Shown: piece after piece, positions 1-9,484 of the stretch
Layout of the letters: every line of letters begins with the position of its first letter
Numbering within the stretch: the stretch's first letter is position 1
From: a bacterium
GTDB taxonomy: Bacteria; BMS3Abin14
DNA length: 10,674 bases
Assembly: GCA_020349685.1 (NCBI GenBank)
Contig: CP070698.1
Span: 1,585,077 to 1,595,750 of the forward strand
Direction of reading: 5' to 3'
Notes under the pieces: generated by a model
What the model was told of the DNA's origin: nothing
The model's database searches: none
The model's input: the letters and a program-made list of their open reading frames with translations, nothing else
Program-made: the position numbers and the translations under genes

Positions 1-1026
1 GATCTGTTCCTGGATGCTTTCGGCTCTGGCGGTGAGGGTCTCGATGCGGGCCCGCAGGATCTCCTTCTGAGCGTCGTCCTTCGTTTCGGCCAGCTCTTTT
101 TCAAGGGCTTTTATTCTGGCCCTGGTGTCCGACTCCTGGTCCAGACGTTCTTCTATATTCTCCGCGATGTCGGCCCTGTCGAAGGCGATCTTCTCCAGTT
201 TTGCCGTCTGAGGCGGTTCAGGAGTCACCTGGACCTCGCCGGGGATAAAGATCCTGTCCTGAACCTGGCGTGTGTTCATGAAGGTGGGCGAGACGATCTC
301 CACTCCCCCGTGGTGCAGATGGTCGATGACGGCGGTCTTCAGACTGGATTGGGAGGTCAGGAGTTTGTCCGTGTCCTTGAGCAGGCCACGGACGCAATAG
401 GTCACGGAGAAATCCCCTAATTCCATGATGAGTACGAAGGGGTCCTCGAGACCGATGGAACCCGCTGCCTTGAGCAGGCATTCCTGGATAATCTGGCGGG
501 CCACGTCGTACCCCAGGGAGACCTCCGCCGATATGATGGTCCCTTTAGACCTTATGACCTTGACCGGGTTGGTGGCGATGAAAAGGTTGGGGATGTTGAC
601 GAGATCGCGATTCTGGGTCTGGATCTCCACGTGGAAGAGGCCTCTTCCCGAGACCCGCCCGAAATACTCCTTAACCTCGATAAAATCGCCCCCCCGGAAG
701 CTCTTCTGGGACCTCAGAAGTATACCCGCAAGGGCGTTACCCAGAAAGGTTGTGGAACTCAGGGCGATGGTGGCGCTGAGGATGATACCCAGAAGGGCGA
801 GGATCTGTCCGCGGAGACTTTCGCTGATGGGCAGTGAAATGACGAGTGCGATGGCGCTTGCGAAAGTCAGGAGAGTCATGATGACCTGCCTGGCGACCTG
901 GTGACCCCGCGGGGATTTCATCCTCACGGCCATGATGTGGTTGACCAGGATGAGTGCGCCGACGATCAGGATGAGCGCTGCGCCAAACCCTGCGACAGGT
1001 TTCCATTGAGGCCAGATATTTGCCAT
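1..1026 (-). CDS. mscS: Small-conductance mechanosensitive channel (MscS family), 3' end runs off the window
   Basis: Translated by hand, since it is not in the ORF track (no stop in window). ATG at 1026-1024 has a GGAGGGG SD. Open for 342 codons: MANIWPQWKPVAGFGAALILIVGALILVNH...LLGIILSATIALSSTTFLGNALAGILLRSQKSFRGGDFIEVKEYFGRVSGRGLFHVEIQTQNRDLVNIPN...SLGYD...LGDFSVTY...GVEIVSP. Three N-terminal TM segments, the MscS 'N..AG......F..GD.I.V....G.V' and 'IPN' motifs, and a charged coiled-coil-like tail. Confidence 0.88.
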   Translation of the reverse strand, partial: MANIWPQWKPVAGFGAALILIVGALILVNHIMAVRMKSPRGHQVARQVIMTLLTFASAIALVISLPISESLRGQILALLGIILSATIALSSTTFLGNALAGILLRSQKSFRGGDFIEVKEYFGRVSGRGLFHVEIQTQNRDLVNIPNLFIATNPVKVIRSKGTIISAEVSLGYDVARQIIQECLLKAAGSIGLEDPFVLIMELGDFSVTYCVRGLLKDTDKLLTSQSSLKTAVIDHLHHGGVEIVSPTFMNTRQVQDRIFIPGEVQVTPEPPQTAKLEKIAFDRADIAENIEERLDQESDTRARIKALEKELAETKDDAQKEILRARIETLTARAESIQEQI

Positions 1027-1204: not shown

Positions 1205-1234
1205 TTGACGCGGTTTACGCCGCTATGGTAAGCA
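1205..1234 (+). promoter_or_regulatory. Possible sigma70-type promoter for the leader/operon
   Basis: TTGACG at 1205-1210, 18-nt spacer, then TAAGCA (1229-1234) preceded by an extended -10 TG at 1226-1227. Lies about 45 nt before the leader ATG. The -10 match is weak. Confidence 0.4.
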
Positions 1235-1262
1235 GGAACCTGAAGTCTGAAATCTGGAATCT
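1235..1262. repeat. Degenerate heptamer tandem repeat (4 units)
   Basis: GGAACCT GAAGTCT GAAATCT GGAATCT. Confidence 0.7.
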
Positions 1263-1277
1263 GGAAAAAGAACTGTA

Positions 1278-1373
1278 ATGACCCTTTTCGCTTCTTTCGA
1301 CACGTTTATTCTTACCAACTGGTCCTGGTGGCCCAGCGATAGAACACCGTGCGAGCCGGGAGGCCAGGGATAG
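1278..1373 (+). CDS. Trp-rich attenuator leader peptide (TrpL-like), 31 aa
   Basis: ATG 1278, TAG 1371-1373; MTLFASFDTFILTNWSWWPSDRTPCEPGGQG. TGG-TCC-TGG-TGG at 1320-1331. Purine-rich GGAAAAAG lies 7 nt upstream (weak SD). Stop codon is about 27 nt before an intrinsic terminator. Confidence 0.8.
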   Translation: MTLFASFDTFILTNWSWWPSDRTPCEPGGQG

Positions 1374-1429
1374 CGTATACCGTAGAACCTTAAGTAAACA
1401 GGCCCCGCCCACCGGCGGGGCTTTTTTTT
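1320..1429 (+). promoter_or_regulatory. Ribosome-dependent transcription attenuator (Trp-sensing)
   Basis: 1:2 hairpin: UCCUGGU 1323-1329 with GCCAGGG 1363-1369, plus CCC 1332-1334 with GGG 1358-1360. 2:3 antiterminator: GG-A-GGCC 1359-1365 with GGCCCC 1401-1406. 3:4 terminator: 1402-1409 with 1414-1421, then U8. Segments 2 and 3 each take part in two mutually exclusive helices. Confidence 0.75.
1400..1429 (+). terminator. Rho-independent terminator (attenuator 3:4 hairpin)
   Basis: GCCCCGCC-CACC-GGCGGGGC (8 GC pairs, 4-nt loop) followed by T8 (1422-1429). The only upstream + strand ORF I can support is the leader peptide. Confidence 0.9.
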
Positions 1430-1469: not shown

Positions 1470-1504
1470 AGGGAAAAGGGTAAAGGGAAAAGGGAAAAGG
1501 GAAA
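1470..1504. repeat. Heptamer tandem repeat (AGGGAAA)x5
   Basis: AGGGAAA AGGGTAA AGGGAAA AGGGAAA AGGGAAA. Confidence 0.85.
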
Positions 1505-1506
1505 GG

Positions 1507-1663
1507 TTGATGCCTTTCCAAAAATCATCAACGCGCCCCGGTGGGGGCGCCCGGATCAACGACAGACATTATCTGGTCTTTGATCCGTGAGGAAAGGGAA
1601 AATGACACTTTTCCCTTTCCGTGGAGCGAAAAGTCCCACCCGGACTTTTTGCGACCCTATCAA
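1507..1663. repeat. MITE/REP-like palindromic element, about 157 bp
   Basis: Imperfect terminal inverted repeats: TTGATGCCTTTCCAAAAATC (1507-1526) versus the reverse complement of the right end (1643-1663), TTGATAGGGTCGCAAAAAGTC. Internal hairpins at 1533-1550, 1591-1620 (perfect 12 bp) and 1626-1652. Confidence 0.45.
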
Positions 1664-1765
1664 GGGACGGCTAGTACCGAAAGAAAGGCAAGAAACCCGA
1701 TTGTTTTATTGTCTGAGACTTGATAATCAATTCTAACGTCAAAGAGGGTGGGAAAGGAGATGGAA

Positions 1766-2917
1766 ATGAAGAGGAAGGGGAAAATGAAAGTAGTTGCGCT
1801 GGTTGCTGCCGCCGGTTTCCTGCTGCTGGGTCAGGGGATGGCCCATGCCGCCGACACCTTCAAGATCGGGGCCGCCTTCGCCCTCACGGGGCCGGCTGCC
1901 GTCATCGGGGACCCCTCTGCGAAGATCGCCGAGATGCTCCTCGAGGAGATCAACGCCGCCGGCGGCGTCAACGGGAAGAAGATCGAGATGATCACCTACG
2001 ACACCGAATCGGACCCCACCAAGGCGGTCACCGTGATCAAAAGGCTCATCGATAAGGACCAGGTCCTGGCCATCATCGGCCCGACCACCACCGGTTCGGC
2101 CATGGCGTCCCTCAAGTTCGTCCAGGACAGCGAGGTTCCCATGGTGGCGTGCGTGGGCGGTGCGCCGGTGGTGGTTCCCGTGAAGAAGTGGGTTTTCAAG
2201 ACACCGCAGTCCGACACCCTGGCGGTGGAGCGGCTCTACGACTACTTCGTCGAGAAGGGCATCAAGAGGGTGGCCATCCTGACCTCCGCCGGAGGTTTCG
2301 GGGACAGCGGCCGCAGGGGCCTGACGGAACAGGCGGGACCCCTGGCGATCCAGATCGTGGCCGACGAGCGGTACGGGGACCGGGACACGGACATGTCGGC
2401 CCAGCTCACCACCATCAAGGGAAAGGACGCCCAGGCCGTCGTGGTCTGGGGCATCGGGCCTGCGCCGGCCATCATCACCAAGAACGCCAGGCAGCTCGAC
2501 CTCGGGATCCCCATCTTCATGAGCCACGGCGTGGCAGACCCCAAGTTCATCGAACTGGCTGAGGAGGCGGCCGAAGGAGTCATGATGCCTGCCAGCCGCT
2601 TCATCGTCGCGGACAAGCTGGACGACTCCGATTCCCGGAAGGCGTTCCTGATGGACGTGAAAAAGAGGTACGAGGAGAAGTACGGGCCGGTGAGCACCCA
2701 CACCGGGTACGCTTACGATGCCCTCAGGATCATCGAAAGAGCTCTTACCGTCGCCGGCGCTGACAGGGCGAAGATCCGCGACGCTATCGAGAACACCAAA
2801 GGCTACGTGGGGATCAACGGCACCTTCAACATGTCCCCGGAGGATCACAACGGCCTGACCAAGGACTCACTGGTCATGGTGGGTGTCAAGGACGGAGGCT
2901 GGGTGATTGTCCCCTGA
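1766..2917 (+). CDS. ABC transporter substrate-binding protein, LivJ/LivK (HAAT) family; probably binds an aromatic acid
   Basis: Signal peptide MKRKGKMKVVALVAAAGFLLLGQGMAHA|A; motifs KIGA..ALTGPAA..G, INAAGGVNGKKIE..YDT.SDP, IIGP, YAYDA, GINGTFNMSPEDHNGL. ATG 1766 chosen for the AAGGAG SD 6 nt upstream; 1748, 1760 and 1784 are alternative starts. Confidence 0.92.
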   Translation: MKRKGKMKVVALVAAAGFLLLGQGMAHAADTFKIGAAFALTGPAAVIGDPSAKIAEMLLEEINAAGGVNGKKIEMITYDTESDPTKAVTVIKRLIDKDQVLAIIGPTTTGSAMASLKFVQDSEVPMVACVGGAPVVVPVKKWVFKTPQSDTLAVERLYDYFVEKGIKRVAILTSAGGFGDSGRRGLTEQAGPLAIQIVADERYGDRDTDMSAQLTTIKGKDAQAVVVWGIGPAPAIITKNARQLDLGIPIFMSHGVADPKFIELAEEAAEGVMMPASRFIVADKLDDSDSRKAFLMDVKKRYEEKYGPVSTHTGYAYDALRIIERALTVAGADRAKIRDAIENTKGYVGINGTFNMSPEDHNGLTKDSLVMVGVKDGGWVIVP

Positions 2918-4850
2918 CCTTCCTCCGGATAATCCCAAAAGGAGCCCGGGAGGAGGCCATCGCCTCCTCCTGGGCAACGAAGCCATGGCCCAGGGACTTT
3001 ACGAGGCCGGCTGCCGGGTGGCGGCGGCCTACCCCGGGACCCCTTCCACCGAGATCCTCGAGAGTCTGTCGACCTACCAGGCCGGGAACCTTCACCTGGA
3101 GTGGTCGGTCAACGAGAAGATCGCCGTAGAGGTGGCGGCCGCCGCTTCCTGCGCGGGCCTTCGAAGCGCGGCGGTCATGAAGCAGGTGGGGCTCAACGTG
3201 GCCCTCGACCCGCTCATGAGCCTCGCCTACACGGGAGTTGTTGGAGGGATGGTCATCATCGTGGCCGACGACCCGGGCCCCCACAGTTCCCAGACCGAAC
3301 AGGACACGCGCCTCCTGGCCATGGCGGCCGGTGTTCCGGTGCTCGACCCGGTCACGCCCGAGGAGGCCAGGGAAATGGTCCACCAGGCCTACCTCATCTC
3401 TGAAAGATACCAGACCCCTGTGATCCTCCGGCCGGTGCTGAGGATCTGCCACTCGCGGGGCCCGGTTGGGCCGGTCTCGGACAGGTACGAGGGTCCCGGG
3501 CCTGCTTTCGTCAAGGACACCAACCGGTGGGCCGCCACGCCCAGGCACCGCCTCACCCTTCACGGCGAGCTGAATCGCAAGCTGGAAAAGATGCCTTCCG
3601 ATCCCCTGGTCTCGGGGATGAACGGCCTCTGGCGCCCGTCCAAGGGCCAAGGGGAGGCGGCCATCCTGGCCTCGGGAACTTCGGCGGCCTACGCCATGGA
3701 TCTCATTGCGGAGAGGGGAATGGACGAGGAAATGCCCCTGTTCGTGGTCCGTTGTCCCTGGCCCCTGGGCGAGGAAGGGGTCGTCGAAACCCTCGGTGGC
3801 TTCAAGAGGATCCTCGTCCTCGAGGAGACAGGACCTTTCCTGGAGATACTGCTGCGGCACCGGCTGAATGTGTCCGGCCGCACCGACGGTCTCGTTCCTT
3901 CCGAAGGGGAGGTGACGCCGGATGTTGTTTCGGAAGCGATGGACGCGTTCTTTGGAATCTCAAATCTCAGATCTCAAATCTCAAAGTCCGGTGAGGGTGA
4001 GCGGGAGAGGCTTCTCTCTGATCCGGGATCCGGGATCGGAAATCCTTTATCCGAGGAGCCAGGAGCCGCTGCCGGCGCCAAACCCAGTCCGCCGACCCTG
4101 TGCGCCGGGTGCCCGCACCGGTCATCCTTCTGGGCTCTCAAGAAGACCATGCCCGGAGCGATCTACACCGGGGACATCGGGTGCTACACCCTGGGCATCG
4201 AACTGGGGGCGGTGGACACGGTCCTGTGCATGGGGGCCTCCATCTCCCAGGCCGCCGGGTTCTACTGGGCTTACCGTCAGTCCGAGGGCCCTGCCCAGCC
4301 CATCGCCGGCGTCATCGGCGATTCCACCTTCTACCACGCCGGGGTTCCAGCGCTCATCAACGCGGTCCAGCAGGGGGCGGCGTTCGTCCTCGTGATCGTG
4401 GACAACGGCACCACCGCCATGACCGGCTGCCAGCCCACCCCGGGGACCGGCGAGCTTCTTTCCGGCAAGGAAGGAAGGGACGTCCCCCTGGAGGAGGTGG
4501 TGAGGGGGTGCGGCGTAAAGAAGCTCTGGATCGTTGATGCCCTGGATTTCGATGCTTTGAGCAACTCCATCTCCACAGCGGCGGCAGCTGCTGCGGAGGG
4601 GGAGATGGCGGTGGTGATCAGCCGTTCCCCCTGCGTCCTGAACATCACCGAGCGGCAGGGGGCCGTTCCCGCAGTGGACCTTGAAATATGCACCGCCTGC
4701 GGTGTTTGCACGGACCGTTTCGGCTGCCCGGCCCTCGTCATGGAGGAAGACGGCGTCCATATCATCGCCGACCTCTGCCCGGGGTGCGGCATCTGCATCG
4801 AAGTTTGTCCCACCGGGGCCATCGCTGCCCCGGGAGGTAGAAAAGGATGA
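2907..4850 (+). CDS. iorA: Indolepyruvate:ferredoxin oxidoreductase alpha subunit
   Basis: LLGNEA, YPGTPSTE, WSVNEK, KQVGLNVA.D, DDPGPHSSQTEQD, LCAGCPHR, GDIGCY, TPP-binding GDSTFYHAG...DNGTTAMTG, and C-terminal ferredoxin motifs CTACGVC..CP and CPGCGICIEVCP. TTG start with GGAGG (2894-2898) 8 nt upstream, overlapping the SBP gene by 11 nt. Confidence 0.95.
   Translation: MSPDLPPDNPKRSPGGGHRLLLGNEAMAQGLYEAGCRVAAAYPGTPSTEILESLSTYQAGNLHLEWSVNEKIAVEVAAAASCAGLRSAAVMKQVGLNVALDPLMSLAYTGVVGGMVIIVADDPGPHSSQTEQDTRLLAMAAGVPVLDPVTPEEAREMVHQAYLISERYQTPVILRPVLRICHSRGPVGPVSDRYEGPGPAFVKDTNRWAATPRHRLTLHGELNRKLEKMPSDPLVSGMNGLWRPSKGQGEAAILASGTSAAYAMDLIAERGMDEEMPLFVVRCPWPLGEEGVVETLGGFKRILVLEETGPFLEILLRHRLNVSGRTDGLVPSEGEVTPDVVSEAMDAFFGISNLRSQISKSGEGERERLLSDPGSGIGNPLSEEPGAAAGAKPSPPTLCAGCPHRSSFWALKKTMPGAIYTGDIGCYTLGIELGAVDTVLCMGASISQAAGFYWAYRQSEGPAQPIAGVIGDSTFYHAGVPALINAVQQGAAFVLVIVDNGTTAMTGCQPTPGTGELLSGKEGRDVPLEEVVRGCGVKKLWIVDALDFDALSNSISTAAAAAAEGEMAVVISRSPCVLNITERQGAVPAVDLEICTACGVCTDRFGCPALVMEEDGVHIIADLCPGCGICIEVCPTGAIAAPGGRKG
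3954..4053. repeat. Two nnATCnn heptamer arrays inside iorA
   Basis: GGAATCT CAAATCT CAGATCT CAAATCT (CAAAGTC) at 3954-3988; TGATCCG GGATCCG GGATCGG AAATCCT TTATCCG at 4019-4053. Confidence 0.75.
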
Positions 4851-5395
4851 AAGCCGTTTCCTCCTACGATATCGTTCTGGCGGGGCGGGGCGGGCAGGGG
4901 GTGATCTACCTCTCGAGGATCATGGGTCAGGCCGCCCTCCTTCAGGGTCTTAGGATCAGGACCACCGAGACCCACGGGATGGCCATGCGGGGCGGCTCGG
5001 TCCAGTGCTTCGTCCGCGTCGGGGAGGTGCACGGACCTCTTTTCAGGAAAGGCTCCGCCGCTCTTGTCATGGCCCTTCATCCCGGCGAAACGTCCCTCGC
5101 CCTGCCTCACCTCCGGGAGGACGGGACGGTCCTCATTAGCGGCGGAGAAGGGGAAAAAACAGGGATCAGCCTGGCTGGCTCTCAAAAACTCCTTGCCCTC
5201 GACGCAGACGCCATCGCCGTGGAGCAGGGAAACCCCCGGTCGGCCAACCTGGCCCTGCTGGGGGGCGCCGTCGGGAGTGTGAAGGGTTTTCCCCTCGAGG
5301 CCTGGTCCATCGAGGCGGCCATCGCCGGAATGGGACCGGCAGGAACTGTGGAGAGGAACCTGGAGATCTTCCGCAAAGGTTTAAATAGTTTCTAG
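4847..5395 (+). CDS. iorB: Indolepyruvate:ferredoxin oxidoreductase beta subunit (POR gamma-like)
   Basis: IVLAGRGGQGV, ETHGMAMRGGSV...VR.G, GNPRSAN.ALLG, N..IF..G; ATGA overlap with the iorA stop. Confidence 0.93.
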   Translation: MKAVSSYDIVLAGRGGQGVIYLSRIMGQAALLQGLRIRTTETHGMAMRGGSVQCFVRVGEVHGPLFRKGSAALVMALHPGETSLALPHLREDGTVLISGGEGEKTGISLAGSQKLLALDADAIAVEQGNPRSANLALLGGAVGSVKGFPLEAWSIEAAIAGMGPAGTVERNLEIFRKGLNSF

Positions 5396-5430
5396 TTCTA
5401 GCTAGAACCAGACACCAGAACCAGACACTG
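5390..5430. repeat. Short CTAGAA/CCAGACA repeat cluster with palindromic centre
   Basis: TCTAGT TCTAG|CTAGAA CCAGACA CCAGAA CCAGACA CTG; same units as the 6756-6881 array; overlaps the iorB TAG. Confidence 0.75.
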
Positions 5431-5444
5431 AATTGGGAGTCCAC

Positions 5445-6713
5445 ATGTATCAACCCGAAATAGAGGCCATGGACCGGGAACAGCTTGTTTCCCAGCAGCT
5501 GGAAAGCCTGCGCCGGACTTTAGCCCGGATCCAGGAACGGAACCCTGATTATCACCGGAGGCTCGGGTCGGTTCAGCCGGGGGACGTGAGTTCCCTTGAG
5601 AACCTCGCCGGTCTGCCTTTCATGGACAAGGACGATCTGCGGGAAGCCTATCCTTTCAAGCTGACCTGCGCCCCCAAAGAGGATTTCGTCCGTTTTCACA
5701 TGAGCTCGGGGACCACGGGGACGCCTATTTTGAATCCCTATACGAAGGCGGACGTGGATCAATGGGGAGAGATCATGGCCAGGTGCTACGCCGCCGCGGG
5801 CGTGGGGGCGGAAGATGTGGTCCAGATCACCCCCTCCTTCGGTCTTTTCAACGGCGGCTTCGGGTTCCATTACGGAGCCACCCGCCTGGGCTCCTTCATC
5901 GTTCCCATCGGCGCCGGCAGAAGCACCCTGCAGCTCCAGTTCATCGAGGACCTGGGAACGACCTGCCTGACCGCCATCGCCTCCTACCCCCTGCGCCTCA
6001 TCGAGGTTGCCCGGGAGGAGGGGTTCGACTGGAGGTCGACCAACCTGAGGGTGGGGATCTTCGGCGCCGAGGTGTGGAGCGACGAGATGAGGGGCCGCAT
6101 CGAGGAGGAGATGGGGATCACCACCTACGACATCATCGGCATGACGGAGACCGGCGGCGTGGGGATGGGCATCGACTGTGAGGACCGGTCGGGCATCCAC
6201 GTGTGGGAGGACCATTACCTTGTGGAGATCGTGGACCCTGTTACAGGTAGGACCCTGCCCGACGGGGAGAGGGGAGAGATGGTGGTGAGCACCCTGACCC
6301 GCGAGGGGCTGCCCCTCATCCGTTTCCGGACCCGGGACATCACGTCCGTCCTGTCCCGGGACCGATGCGGCTGCGGCAGGACGCACCTGCGCATCGCCCG
6401 CATCACGGGACGCAACGACGACATGATCAAGGTCAAGGGGATCAACTTCTACCCGCAGCAGATCGAGTCGCTGCTTTTAAGGGAGCCCGGAGTGGGGAAC
6501 GACTATCTCCTTACCATCGACCGCGTCGCCGGGGCCGACCGGCTGGAGATAAAAGTGGAGGTGCAAAACCCCGGGGACGACACCCTGGCCGGACGGCTCG
6601 CCCGGATCTTGAGGGATTTCCTGGCGTTTAACGCCGATCTCGAGCTGGTGCCCCTGGGGAGCATCGAGAGGCCCCCGGGCAAGGCGGTCAGGGTGGTGGA
6701 CAGGAGGAAATAA
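5445..6713 (+). CDS. paaK: Phenylacetate-CoA ligase family (PaaK-like) arylacetate-CoA ligase
   Basis: LPFMDKDDLR..YPF, HMSSGTTGTP P-loop, GIFGAEVWS, DIIGMTE, HVWEDHY.VEIVDP, PLIRFRTRDI, GRNDDMIKVKGINFYP, GKAVRVVDRR. ATG 5445 has a GGGAG SD 5 nt upstream and is preferred over TTG 5433. Substrate is uncertain. Confidence 0.93.
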   Translation: MYQPEIEAMDREQLVSQQLESLRRTLARIQERNPDYHRRLGSVQPGDVSSLENLAGLPFMDKDDLREAYPFKLTCAPKEDFVRFHMSSGTTGTPILNPYTKADVDQWGEIMARCYAAAGVGAEDVVQITPSFGLFNGGFGFHYGATRLGSFIVPIGAGRSTLQLQFIEDLGTTCLTAIASYPLRLIEVAREEGFDWRSTNLRVGIFGAEVWSDEMRGRIEEEMGITTYDIIGMTETGGVGMGIDCEDRSGIHVWEDHYLVEIVDPVTGRTLPDGERGEMVVSTLTREGLPLIRFRTRDITSVLSRDRCGCGRTHLRIARITGRNDDMIKVKGINFYPQQIESLLLREPGVGNDYLLTIDRVAGADRLEIKVEVQNPGDDTLAGRLARILRDFLAFNADLELVPLGSIERPPGKAVRVVDRRK

Positions 6714-6730: not shown

Positions 6731-6756
6731 GAATCCAGAGTCTGGAGTCTGGATTC
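6731..6756. terminator. Hairpin between convergent genes; possible bidirectional terminator or pause site
   Basis: GAATCCAGA (6731-6739) / TCTGGATTC (6748-6756), built from inverted repeat units. No U-tract follows on the + strand. Confidence 0.35.
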
Positions 6757-6881
6757 CAGACACCAGACACCAGACACTAGAACTAGACACTAGAACCAGA
6801 CACTAGAACCAGACACTAGAACCAGACACCAGACACTAGAACCAGACACCAGACACTAGAACCAGACACTAGAACTAGACA
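6756..6881. repeat. 126-bp mixed heptamer/hexamer tandem array
   Basis: 19 contiguous units: 12 x C(C/T)AGACA and 7 x CTAGAA. The last unit supplies the TAG stop of the permease gene. Confidence 0.95.
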
Positions 6882-9211
6882 CTGTTTTCTTCCTCTTCTG
6901 TCTCCTTTTCCAGCACCTCTTCTCCTTCTGAGGTTTCCTCCCCCGTCTCCGTACCTTCCCCCTCCGGCACCCCCGGAACATCCTCCACCACGCGGTCGAT
7001 GTCGATCTCCCGAAGGGTGTTGACGAAGAGGATGCTGCCCAGTTCGTCGTACCCCTCGAAGATGCCGGCCCCTTCGTGCCGCAGCAGCTCCCCCCGGAAA
7101 CCGATGAGGACAAGGTCCGCGTCCCTCGATAGCTCGTTGATCCTGGCCCGGCCGTCTGCCCCGTGGGGGAGGGGAACGGTCTCGATGTTCCTGGTGGAGA
7201 TGGGGAGGCGCCCCTCCCGCACCATTTTGAGAAGCTCCTCCTTGCTCTCCTCCACCACCTCCTCCGGGAACATGGTGAAGATCCTGATGATTCCCCCCAT
7301 CCACTCGGGATGTCCCAGGATGATGTATCCGAGGAGGATCATGAGGTTGACGTTCTCGTAGTCGGCCGGCGTGATCCAGATGTGGATCTCGCCGTGGTAG
7401 CCGAAGCCCCTCTCGCTGGAAGCTAAAATGCACACGTCGAAGTCCGCCGCGACCGCCAGGCGGTAGTTCTCGATGATCTGTTCCACTTCCTCGGTTTCTC
7501 CCTTGGCGAACTCGAAGAGCACCAGGTTGTTCTCCTTGCCCGAGATGCTCGGCAGCTGCACGAGCTGGGATACAGCCGCGCCGTAAGATGGGCTGATGAC
7601 GGTGTCCACGTAGACGTTGCTCTCGCTGGCGCCCGCAAGGTGCAGGAGGCGCTGGAGGACGTCCCGGGACTCCTCGTTGGCTGCTCTCGAGAAATGCCCC
7701 TCGATGAAGTGGATGTAGGTGCCGAATCCATACCGGTGGGAGATCCAGCGCATGAGCTCGAAGGCCGAGAGGCGTTTGAAGGAATCCTTGGATATACACA
7801 CCACGGAGGGCCGCCATGTGGCCTCGGCCGACCTGTGGGCCTTCTGCAGGAAAACGTGCAGCTTGCGGCTCACCTGGAAGATGGCGCCCTGGAAGAGACT
7901 GGCAAGGCCCCTCTTCTCGGGGTGGATGCGGGCCACCGCCACATAGATGCTCACCATGAAGAGGATGGACAGGGAGGCGTAGGCGGGGCTCATCTCGAAC
8001 ATGAACCACACGCACGCCAGGGCCCCCACGAGGGAGATGTACCAGCGGGACCGGAAGGAGGGCCGGTAGGAGGGGTCGGCCGCAAAGTGCTCGAGGGTGG
8101 AGATGAGACAGATGGTTCCGTAGGTTACCATGAAGATCATGGAGATGATCCGGGCCACGAAATCCACGTCCCCTATTGTGACGAAGAAGAGGGCGATGGC
8201 CACGGTGACGAGGGTACCGTTGAAGGGCTCCCCTGTGTCCCCGCGTCCGAAGGACACCCACTTGTTGAACCGCGCGCCGGGGAAGATCCCGTCGTGACCC
8301 AGGGCCTGCAGGGTGCGGGGTCCTACCAGGATGGAGCCCAGCGCCGAGGAGAAGGTGGCGCACCCCAGCCCGATGGGGATGATGGGTCCCCACAGGGCGA
8401 TGCGGCTCATGATGAGCTGATCCGCGGCAAGGTCCGCAGGGCTCGCCGACACAGAGAGTTTCCAGGCGATGGCGAGGTAGACGACCATGCCCACGAGGGC
8501 CGCGGAGAGGGTTCCCAGCGGTATGGATCTCCTGGGCCGTTTCAGGTCGCCCGAAAGCCCCACACCGGCGGTGACGCCGGTAAAGGCCGGGAATATGATG
8601 GCGAACACCAGGAAGAAGGTGTCGGGCGAGGAGACATGTCCGGTCCACAGGTCCGCCGTCCCGGCAGGAGCGTACCCCGTGCTCCCCACGAAAAAGAGGA
8701 CCAGAGACACGAAAAGGGTGCCCACGACGAGGTAGAGGACGCGGACCCCCAGGTTGGCCCCCTTCGCCAGGACCAGGGCTCCAAGGATGAGGACACCGGG
8801 GATGCTGACCAGCCTCGGGTCGTTCAGGGCGTACCCGTAAACCTCGTTGAGGTAGGCGTAGACCGGACGGAAAGCCTCCGCGAAGGCGATGCTGTAAAAG
8901 GCGACGCTCACAGCCTCCGAAAAATAGAGGGCGACACCGATGGCCGCTCCCACGGTGATGCCGAAGGAGCGGGAGATGATGTAATAGGAACCGCCTCCTT
9001 CCACCTTCTGGTTGGTGGCGATCTCCGCGATGGCCATGGCAGTGGGGATGGTGACGATGTGCCCGAGAAGGATGATGACGAAGGTGCCCAGCAGCCCCAC
9101 GTGGGCCACGGAATACCCGAAGCGCAGGAACATGATGGCGCCGAGGATCGTGGAGATGGCGGTCATGAAGACAGGCGCCGTGCCGAGGCTTTTCCTTCTG
9201 GGTTTTTCCAT
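6875..9211 (-). CDS. APC-superfamily permease, prokaryotic cation-chloride cotransporter (SLC12/CCC)-like, 778 aa
   Basis: About 12 TM segments with CCC motifs ILGAIMFLR, AIATN..V.GGGSYYIISRSFG..VG.AIG, FPAFTG..AG..LSGDLK.P.RSIP.GTL, PRTLQAL..D, PSYRPSFR, and a cytoplasmic C-terminal domain starting WRP. GGGGAG SD upstream of ATG 9211. Acidic tail. Confidence 0.9.
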   Translation of the reverse strand: MEKPRRKSLGTAPVFMTAISTILGAIMFLRFGYSVAHVGLLGTFVIILLGHIVTIPTAMAIAEIATNQKVEGGGSYYIISRSFGITVGAAIGVALYFSEAVSVAFYSIAFAEAFRPVYAYLNEVYGYALNDPRLVSIPGVLILGALVLAKGANLGVRVLYLVVGTLFVSLVLFFVGSTGYAPAGTADLWTGHVSSPDTFFLVFAIIFPAFTGVTAGVGLSGDLKRPRRSIPLGTLSAALVGMVVYLAIAWKLSVSASPADLAADQLIMSRIALWGPIIPIGLGCATFSSALGSILVGPRTLQALGHDGIFPGARFNKWVSFGRGDTGEPFNGTLVTVAIALFFVTIGDVDFVARIISMIFMVTYGTICLISTLEHFAADPSYRPSFRSRWYISLVGALACVWFMFEMSPAYASLSILFMVSIYVAVARIHPEKRGLASLFQGAIFQVSRKLHVFLQKAHRSAEATWRPSVVCISKDSFKRLSAFELMRWISHRYGFGTYIHFIEGHFSRAANEESRDVLQRLLHLAGASESNVYVDTVISPSYGAAVSQLVQLPSISGKENNLVLFEFAKGETEEVEQIIENYRLAVAADFDVCILASSERGFGYHGEIHIWITPADYENVNLMILLGYIILGHPEWMGGIIRIFTMFPEEVVEESKEELLKMVREGRLPISTRNIETVPLPHGADGRARINELSRDADLVLIGFRGELLRHEGAGIFEGYDELGSILFVNTLREIDIDRVVEDVPGVPEGEGTETGEETSEGEEVLEKETEEEENSV

Positions 9212-9290
9212 GGATATCTCCCCAAAAGATGCAGAACACTTTCACAACATTAAACACCCGGCGAAGGGACTTGTCGAGGAAGGATAGTTT

Positions 9291-9318
9291 AAAGGTGAAA
9301 GGAAAAAGGGAAAAGGGG
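9291..9318. repeat. Heptamer repeat (AAAGGnn)x4
   Basis: AAAGGTG AAAGGAA AAAGGGA AAAGGGG; resembles the 1470-1504 array. Confidence 0.65.
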
Positions 9319-9328
9319 GGAAATGAAA

Positions 9329-9360
9329 GGGGCCCGCGGTCGCTGGTGATCGCGGGCCCC
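9329..9360. other. Strong GC-rich hairpin (REP-like or terminator-like)
   Basis: GGGGCCCGCGGTCG-CTGG-TGATCGCGGGCCCC, 14-bp stem including two G-U pairs on the + strand. Confidence 0.55.
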
Positions 9361-9435
9361 CTCTCGAAAAGTGGTGCCGTCTGCCGCATGACTGGTAGTC
9401 GAGTAAATGTTACATGAAAAGGAGGGGGAAGGGAA

Positions 9436-9484
9436 TATTCCGGATTCCGAGTTCTGGATTCCGGGTCGGTGCCCGGAATGACGG
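9436..9484. repeat. Heptamer run merging into a REP-like palindrome
   Basis: TATTCCG GATTCCG AGTTCTG GATTCCG, then ATTCCGGG (9458-9465) / CCCGGAAT (9472-9479) followed by GACGG. Confidence 0.6.

Follow-up and report, generated by a model that had tools for sequence, protein, structure and literature searches.

Leader-peptide attenuators carry their own functional label, since the repeated codon of the leader names the signal. Attenuators of the trpL type have been predicted in Corynebacterium and Streptomyces, and attenuators have also been described before trpS and leuS in Streptomyces and before pheST in gamma-proteobacteria, according to one published study (PMC1262725). The present analysis concerns a candidate for this class in 10,674 nucleotides (nt) of bacterial DNA from the GTDB lineage BMS3Abin14 (NCBI GenBank assembly GCA_020349685.1, contig CP070698.1, positions 1,585,077 to 1,595,750 of the forward strand), hereafter referred to as the window. 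Within it, a short open reading frame (ORF) with closely spaced tryptophan (Trp) codons and a strong intrinsic terminator precede an operon for a periplasmic substrate-binding protein (SBP), the IorA-like and IorB-like subunits of an enzyme resembling indolepyruvate ferredoxin oxidoreductase (IOR), and a PaaK-like aryl-acetate-CoA ligase. A trpL-type attenuator had been proposed here in a first-pass annotation made from the sequence alone, and that reading is supported by comparison with related genomes. The element is interpreted, with a probability of about 0.78, as a ribosome-mediated leader-peptide attenuator that senses charged tRNA-Trp and gates the SBP-IorA-IorB-PaaK-like operon. The interest of the finding lies in the regulatory label, because this label informs the physiology of the operon.

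The leader ORF encodes the peptide MTLFASFDTFILTNWSWWPSDRTPCEPGGQG, in which W-S-W-W occupies codons 15-18. Direct reading of positions 1000-1900 reproduced, base for base, the 31-codon ORF with W-S-W-W that had been annotated, and likewise the weak Shine-Dalgarno (SD) sequence noted with it, the ATG being preceded by AAGAA. The features of the leader region are as follows.

1205 to 1231, plus strand: promoter-like motif TTGAC-N16-TGnTA (a -35 element and an extended -10-like element), 73 nt 5′ of the leader ATG
1278 to 1373, plus strand: leader ORF of 31 codons and TAG (ATG 1278-1280, stop codon TAG 1371-1373)
1283 to 1304, plus strand: 5′ half of the ORF, which pairs with segment 2 in the minimum free energy fold of the window (no-ribosome state) and thereby gives an extended 1:2 structure enclosing the Trp-codon hairpin
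1320 to 1322, 1326 to 1328 and 1329 to 1331, plus strand: TGG codons for Trp, read directly from the sequence and proposed to be regulatory
1348 to 1369, plus strand: segment 2, which ends at the stop codon and can pair with segment 1 or with the 5′ arm of the terminator
1400 to 1429, plus strand: intrinsic terminator, with its 5′ arm at 1401-1409 (segment 3), loop at 1410-1413, 3′ arm at 1414-1421 (segment 4) and U8 at 1422-1429

A terminator scan returned positions 1400-1423 as a terminator-like hairpin that has a T run, a loop of 4 nt, and 10 pairs, 8 of which are G-C; together with the direct reading, this bears out the strong terminator and U8 tract of the first-pass annotation. The gene upstream of the leader, an MscS-like channel gene (1-1026, minus strand), is divergent, and the terminator would therefore end a transcript begun in the intergenic region.

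Conservation was examined in a family sample of 16 genomes in the collection, all uncultured. An IorA orthologue is present in 11 of the 16 (59-74% identity, with paralogues at 39% or less), and the regions 5′ of the orthologous SBP genes were scanned for short ORFs containing WW or WxW. At seven of nine orthologous loci in other genomes, a Trp-rich leader ORF with a terminator was found (G002, G006, G007, G008, G011, G012, and G013); of the other two, the locus of G004, in which the SBP start lies inside an N gap, is not evaluable. The G003 genome has the SBP-iorA operon with a 215-nt intergenic region devoid of leader ORF, terminator, and covariance-model match; its genus-mate G011 retains both leader and terminator, and the pair represents a natural loss or gain of the attenuator. 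A search of genome and metagenome collections with the SBP alignment added the leaders L073, L088, and L089. Among the 103 loci fetched in this manner, the scan flagged six, all with an SBP that shares 70% identity or more with the query, and the leader of L068, which is the same as G013, escaped that scan owing to an interrupted T run. No leader was found directly upstream of the Geobacterales SBP homologues (47-48%), whose gene order is different. Conserved Trp-codon ORFs with terminators upstream of orthologous operons, which the first-pass annotation had named as the comparative check, were thereby found in 11 sequences (the window, G002, G006, G007, G008, G011, G012, G013, L073, L088, and L089). 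A covariance model (R1) built from these 11 sequences scored 84-102 bits in 9 of the 16 family genomes, with one match in each; all eight strong matches for which the flank was read adjoin an SBP gene, and one of them, in G015, is a new leader with which L073 appears to be identical. The ten weaker matches inspected (41 bits or less) have no Trp ORF, several lie immediately after a coding region, and they are read as gene-end terminators.

The 11 leaders form three sequence subgroups, and their peptides, of 22-34 residues, have only the Trp run in common. The run takes the forms WxWW, WxxWW, WWW, or WW and begins 13-17 codons after the ATG, and two or three Trp codons within four codons, the tandem arrangement of a Trp-class attenuator, occur in 11/11. 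The stop codon is mobile, lying anywhere between 3 and 15 codons past the last Trp, yet in every sequence the terminator ends 119-125 nt from the first Trp codon. Invariant in the alignment, and hence in all three subgroups, are the UGG codons, a GCCGG block (~1354-1359) and a GGG block beside the usual stop codon (1367-1369), both within segment 2, and the terminator, which is kept between leader ORF and gene in all 11 sequences. In G002, the GCCGG-to-GGG stretch is preserved as nucleotides though it lies in another reading frame. This pattern of conservation is as expected for a leader peptide that is meaningful only at its regulatory codons, inside a constrained RNA. Such invariance at the nucleotide level, including that of the UGGUG-GCCGG helix, and the weak SD in the window might also be explained by an untranslated structured RNA, in which the UGG repeats serve pairing or the binding of a protein or ligand, with the ORF being incidental. 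However, in 11/11 an ATG lies 13-17 codons ahead of the Trp triplets and in their frame, the frames remain open through the very different sequences of the three subgroups, and a purine-rich, SD-like stretch, as judged from sequence, is clear ahead of the ATG in 10 leaders and weak in the window, where AAGAA stands in place of the AAGGA of the closest relative, G002. Furthermore, Rfam models run over the whole window gave no family at its gathering score. An RNA with an incidental ORF is consequently regarded as very improbable, and the leader ORF is presumed to be translated.

The promoter-like motif and the spacing of terminator and operon bear on whether leader and genes are transcribed together. 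TTGAC-N16-TGnTA is present with identical spacing in 11/11 leaders, 47-106 nt ahead of the ATG; it has 16 matches genome-wide on both strands, of which the window has one (1205), and none falls within 1400-1800. A generic sigma-70 scan of positions 900-1900 returned no promoter. The motif is interpreted as a putative promoter. In G006, G012, G008, and L073, the SBP start codon follows the last T of the terminator by only ~45-52 nt, as counted on the sequence; such a spacer holds an SD and has no space for a promoter of its own, and the operon must therefore be read through the terminator in these loci. The upstream neighbours vary, with the divergent MscS-like gene in the window and other genes in G008, G011, and G012, and because the upstream genes differ among genomes, the leader element belongs to the operon and travels with it. 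Leader and operon would accordingly constitute one transcription unit, with the promoter 5′ of the leader and none between terminator and gene. In the window itself, the gap of ~335 nt between terminator and first gene that the first-pass annotation had listed as a caveat is real (~330-355 nt, depending on the SBP start), but it is not intrinsic to the locus, being due to an inserted dispersed repeat. The repeats that flank the leader are given below.

1235 to 1266, plus strand: heptanucleotide tandem repeat, GGAATCT x4.6, in the presumed 5′ untranslated region (UTR) of the leader transcript
1470 to 1504, plus strand: heptanucleotide tandem repeat, AGGGAAA x5, after the terminator; one unit is absent in contigs of three DNA runs
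1502 to 1666, plus strand: inserted copy of a dispersed repeat of ~160 nt, including a hairpin and T run at 1629-1650

By blastn, more than 20 further copies of the 1502-1666 repeat occur in the genome at 73-92% identity, and contig depth over the corresponding stretch (1520-1663) is elevated in three sediment DNA runs, where loose ends are also numerous. The repeat resembles a small non-coding mobile or repetitive extragenic palindrome (REP)-like element.

The long spacer invites the explanation that the leader is an independent small gene, for a small RNA or a small protein, that regulates in trans, the operon having its own promoter. Attenuator-derived RNAs and leader peptides of Sinorhizobium can indeed act in trans, according to two reports (PMC6614838, PMC7298713), and the G003 operon lacks the element. 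Nevertheless, the ~45-52-nt spacers described above, the absence of any promoter-like motif in 1400-1800, and the occurrence of the element only beside this operon speak against independence, and the long spacer is an inserted repeat. This is the least improbable of the alternatives considered and is still unlikely; a trans role of the terminated leader RNA could, by analogy, exist on top of the cis role. It may also be asked whether a true attenuator of the relatives has decayed into a non-functional relic in the window genome, given that its SD is AAGAA and that of G002 is AAGGA, that a repeat of ~160 nt with a hairpin and T run has been inserted downstream, and that G003 has lost the element altogether. 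Against decay, the window retains an undamaged promoter motif, leader ORF, set of Trp codons, segment 2, and terminator, and G007 and G013 likewise combine long spacers with intact leaders. Moreover, the sequence is maintained in DNA contigs from two other studies: over 1100-1583, one contig differs only by the lack of a single 7-nt repeat unit, and over 1100-1473 a contig from the second study has no difference, such that the DNA runs reveal no variation in the leader. A relic is the most remote of the alternatives, and a working attenuator in the window genome is preferred. In an RNA run, one near-identical contig lies inside the SBP gene (2482-2677, 3 differences) and none lies on 1100-1480; as contigs cannot show transcript starts or ends, this is evidence neither way, and the other pieces of the run are repeat copies or conserved parts of other organisms.

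The secondary structures that the leader RNA can adopt were evaluated by alignment-based and constrained folding. RNAalifold, applied to the 11 sequences, keeps two helices, i.e., the terminator and a helix between UGGUG (1326-1330) and GCCGG, the latter being the sole non-terminator helix retained across the set, with its 5′ strand inside the Trp codons. The competing pairing between segments 2 and 3, for which an antiterminator of ~6 bp had been foreseen, exists and comprises 8 bp: RNAduplex pairs 1355-1365 with 1401-1408 with two bulges and -11.8 kcal/mol. Across the set, the best duplex between the middle region and the 5′ arm has -9.8 to -15.0 kcal/mol and overlaps the site that pairs with segment 1 in 11/11, and a 2:3 helix drawn by hand on the alignment is 80% paired, vs 39-60% in slid controls. 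The states of the leader were folded with the RNA 3′ of the ribosome only, which replaced unconstrained folds in which pairing across the ribosome gave confusing structures. When the ribosome is stalled at the last Trp codon and the 3′ arm is not yet present, the 5′ arm pairs with segment 2 in 10/11; in the window, 8/8 arm bases are paired, at -16.0 kcal/mol vs -17.9 kcal/mol for the terminator alone. When the ribosome is at the stop codon, the 5′ arm is essentially free (-3 kcal/mol or weaker) in 9/11, and when no ribosome is present, segment 1 holds segment 2 in 9/11. The constrained folds thus agree with the two expectations of the first-pass annotation, a 2:3 pairing on stalling and, at the stop, an arm left free for the 3:4 pairing, whereas statistics against shuffled sequences lend the antiterminator no support. 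The helix between 1283-1304 and segment 2 is confined to the subgroup of the window and is not family-wide, and the fold energy of 1270-1432 is ordinary (z = -1.35, equalled by 14 of 200 shuffles). The 1:2, 2:3, and 3:4 geometry is right and recurrent, and the antiterminator, plausible in the constrained folds, is inferred. Finally, RF00513 (Trp_leader) is among the two best weak Rfam matches, at 22.3 bits over 1320-1428, with UGGUGG, the stem, and the terminator aligned; the model is insensitive in this lineage, in which the trpE leader of the same genome is unmatched at E <= 1.

This trpE leader is the second Trp-codon leader of the genome. When the whole genome was scanned for short WW- or WxW-containing ORFs with a terminator behind them, 10 candidates emerged, two of which, that of the window and that of trpE, are convincing and lie before genes. 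The trpE leader is as follows.

G000:C1 ~737767 to 737958 (L063, 768 to 911): trpE leader, a 27-codon ORF with WWW and a terminator ending ~50 nt ahead of trpE

The trpE gene is identified by the Pfam domains Anth_synt_I_N and Chorismate_bind; it is cut by an N gap, past which the frame runs into an unrelated MscS C-terminus. The assembly from which the window derives is a 2.03-Mb scaffold with 34,231 N in gaps, and absences in this genome, such as that of trpA, which was not found in it, carry little weight because of these gaps. An equivalent of the trpE leader is present in 13/13 evaluable family genomes, the locus of a 14th ending too early; trpA occurs in 14 of the 16 genomes and, in eight of them, shares a contig with trpE and follows it at 5.6-6.5 kb. 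The gene content makes it likely that members of the family are prototrophs with a classical attenuated trp operon. By blastn, the window leader and the trpE leader have no nucleotide similarity, and their terminators differ. A whole-genome search for leaders rich in other amino acids and followed by a terminator gave nothing convincing, and a search around 112 loci with IOR or SBP paralogues, in relatives and on metagenome contigs, gave only one further leader. In the metagenome contigs L122 (1298-1435) and L121 (the same coordinates), a 27-codon ORF with seven Tyr codons, including YYYY, is followed by a terminator that lies ~80 nt ahead of genes for a paralogous Peripla_BP_6 SBP and for LivH and LivM, a candidate tyrosine attenuator on a transporter. 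By sequence, at least one further organism thus has an aromatic-codon leader associated with this SBP family.

The attenuator in the window is proposed to operate in the following manner. Transcription would start ~35-40 nt ahead of the leader ATG, from TTGAC-N16-TGnTA. When Trp-tRNA is plentiful, the translating ribosome would reach the TAG at 1371-1373 and cover segment 2 (1348-1369), and when no ribosome is loaded, segment 1 would hold segment 2; with segment 2 covered or held, the hairpin at 1401-1421 and U8 would form and transcription would stop. When Trp-tRNA is scarce, the ribosome would stall on the W-S-W-W codons (1320-1331), segment 2 would pair with the 5′ arm of the terminator ahead of synthesis of the 3′ arm, and the polymerase would continue into the operon. 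The genes thereby controlled are listed below.

1760 to 2917, plus strand: SBP (Peripla_BP_6), first gene of the operon, with its start at 1760, 1766, or 1784
2907 to 4850, plus strand: IorA-like 2-oxoacid:ferredoxin oxidoreductase alpha subunit (Pfam POR_N, TPP_enzyme_C, and Fer4)
4847 to 5395, plus strand: IorB-like beta subunit (Pfam POR)
5433 to 6713, plus strand: PaaK-like aryl-acetate-CoA ligase, AMP-forming (best NCBIfam match TIGR02155)

The SBP, IorA, and IorB genes overlap or abut, and the PaaK-like gene follows 37 nt further. The SBP is nearest to the solved structures 3uk0, 3ukj, 3tx6, and 4jb0 (E 1e-38 to 1e-40, vs ~1e-16 for LivJ/LivK), a group which we take to be binding proteins for aromatic acids. 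The nearest solved structures of the PaaK-like protein are 4r1l and 2y27, which are phenylacetate-CoA ligases. The labels "IOR-like" and "PaaK-like" are justified as those of the best-matching families, whose scores do not establish substrates. In a paralogous cluster of the same genome (L060; G000:C1 ~593.3-596.8 kb), the C-terminus of a PaaK, after an N gap, is accompanied by genes for an ACT-domain protein, an SBP 48% identical to that of the window, LivH, and LivM, in the gene order of the Geobacterales homologues and with no leader; that its permease could serve both SBPs is a guess.

Regulation and gene content together suggest a function for the operon. Expression when charged tRNA-Trp is scarce would make degradation of Trp senseless, and the operon is therefore regarded as probably anabolic, while an AMP-forming ligase and a binding protein fit the uptake and activation of an acid. 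Briefly, when de novo supply fails, the SBP would import an indolic aryl acid such as indole-3-acetate, the PaaK-like ligase would activate it to the CoA thioester, IorAB with reduced ferredoxin would reductively carboxylate indoleacetyl-CoA to indolepyruvate, and an aminotransferase encoded elsewhere would convert the latter to Trp. Rumen anaerobes make Trp from indoleacetate. Methanococcus maripaludis is an established case in which aromatic amino acids are made from aryl acids by way of IOR (Porat et al., 2004, as cited in PMC4162585). The probable role of the operon is thus the salvage of an indolic aryl acid, which reductive carboxylation would turn into a precursor of Trp. The first-pass annotation had called it a non-trp operon; its genes are indeed not trp genes, but the designation is probably misleading, since the attenuator logic and the gene content suggest synthesis of Trp from an aryl acid. 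A wider interpretation, put forward tentatively and with rather less than even odds, is that of a two-operon Trp-starvation regulon controlled entirely by leader-peptide attenuation and consisting of the de novo trp operon and a dedicated salvage operon for indole-3-acetate or a related indolic acid.

The opposite direction of metabolism would be implied by an arrest peptide akin to TnaC, in which the nascent peptide, with free Trp bound to it, would arrest the ribosome and avert termination, such that the operon would be induced by abundant Trp and would degrade it by way of indolepyruvate to indoleacetyl-CoA. IOR enzymes are usually treated as oxidative and catabolic (PMC5817080), which favours this alternative. 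The leader does contain Trp, and a few residues after the Trp run recur within the subgroup of the window. Across subgroups, however, only the Trp run is kept, and the C-termini differ (last codons G, A, V, D, or G). TnaC requires a fixed W...D...P-stop motif, by which it senses free Trp, and Rho, whose termination it blocks. Here, the terminator is of the intrinsic type, with hairpin and U tract, and the stop moves (ORFs of 22 to 34 codons) while the RNA spacing is fixed. Furthermore, the lineage has a tandem-Trp leader at trpE, where only starvation sensing is sensible, and an AMP-forming ligase with a binding protein is a misfit for ATP-yielding fermentation. Induction by abundant Trp through a TnaC-like peptide is considered decidedly unlikely, and an attenuator that would respond to a shortage of charged tRNA-Trp is retained as the preferred reading.

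A number of observations weigh against this attenuator, or against the salvage function attributed to it. With regard to RNA structure, in none of the 11 sequences is the 2:3 duplex more stable than those formed after dinucleotide shuffling of the middle region (p = 0.11-0.66, and p = 0.43 in the window), and for the 1:2 duplex an advantage over shuffles is confined to part of the set (p = 0.02-0.47). The number of compensatory pairs in the RNAalifold result is 0, and the pairing of the hand-drawn 2:3 helix is reached by 318 of 500 shuffles, with one two-sided change only. Exceptions to the state folds are G008 in the stalled state, G008 and G013, both of which have early stops, in the stop-codon state, and G007 and G013 in the no-ribosome state, and the RF00513 score of 22.3 bits is below the gathering threshold of 41 bits. 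With regard to expression, the SD of the window leader (AAGAA) is weak, the single RNA run gives no evidence for the leader, the hairpin and T run in the inserted repeat (1629-1650) could add polarity, and the G003 operon without a leader indicates that the attenuator is dispensable. With regard to function, the best matches fall below their equivalog cut-offs, namely IorA with TIGR03336 (IOR_alpha; 604.9 vs 650.9 bits), IorB with TIGR03334 (IOR_beta; 128.1 vs 205.8 bits), and the PaaK-like protein with TIGR02155 (383.8 vs 646.3 bits); the operon has neither an aminotransferase gene nor an ABC permease gene, and IOR is mostly described as catabolic in the source already cited.

Short tandem repeats with a 7-nt period, or with 13-, 20-, or 33-nt compounds of it, are numerous in the intergenic spacers of the window (1235-1266, 1470-1504, 5404-5428, 6738-6883, 9298-9317, and 9437-9464), and another is situated at 3956-3985 within iorA. 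In the relatives, different heptamers are found at matching places, e.g., in the leader 5′ UTR and after the terminator. An 857-codon ORF (6816-9389, minus strand), which at its 3′ end overlaps an array of tandem repeats of 13-nt period, has no match in Pfam or NCBIfam.

The literature search, which covered mostly open full texts, retrieved no account of an IOR, PaaK, or SBP operon preceded by a Trp leader, in agreement with the statement of the first-pass annotation that none was known before SBP-iorAB-paaK; earlier mention in a comparative-genomics table is possible. The regulatory label implies that an operon usually annotated as catabolism of aromatic compounds or amino acids would be turned on by Trp shortage, which reverses its expected role, and the lesson for annotation is that a catabolic role of IOR/PaaK operons cannot be assumed. 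It also gives a testable assignment of genes to the formation of Trp from indoleacetate by reductive carboxylation in anaerobic bacteria. A little-known, uncultured sediment lineage would use classical attenuation at two loci with unrelated leaders, neither of which is recognised by the Rfam model. If the two-operon interpretation is true, this would be the first regulatory signature to assign bacterial genes, and a direction, to the conversion of aryl acids to aromatic amino acids by anaerobes, and the Tyr leader of L121 and L122 hints that leaders for aromatic amino acids mark wider systems of uptake and salvage.

Among known systems, the leader most resembles the trpL of the Escherichia coli type, with which it shares a short ORF with two or three tandem UGG codons, a terminator rich in G+C and ending in a U tract, a middle segment that could pair either upstream or with the terminator arm, and a stop codon placed such that the terminating ribosome covers the middle segment. 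By contrast with trpL, the genes proposed to be regulated are those for SBP, IOR-like, and PaaK-like proteins rather than trp genes, and the antiterminator is statistically unsupported here. Attenuator-controlled amino-acid transporters are said to have been predicted by Vitreschak and co-workers in 2004. As in the attenuators before trpS, leuS, and pheST, the controlled genes would raise the supply or use of the cognate amino acid without synthesising it de novo, although the targets in those cases are tRNA synthetases. The aryl-acid route of M. maripaludis has IOR in the same reductive, anabolic direction, which is suggested here by regulation and gene content; unlike the window operon, that route is archaeal and without an attenuator. 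TnaC offers the parallel of a Trp-containing leader peptide before a Trp-related, non-biosynthetic operon, whereas in the present leaders only the Trp codons are conserved, in tandem, and termination is intrinsic. The mechanism itself is therefore that of the textbook, and attenuator targets outside biosynthesis are already known; the new part is the target, an operon for IOR-like, PaaK-like, and substrate-binding proteins.

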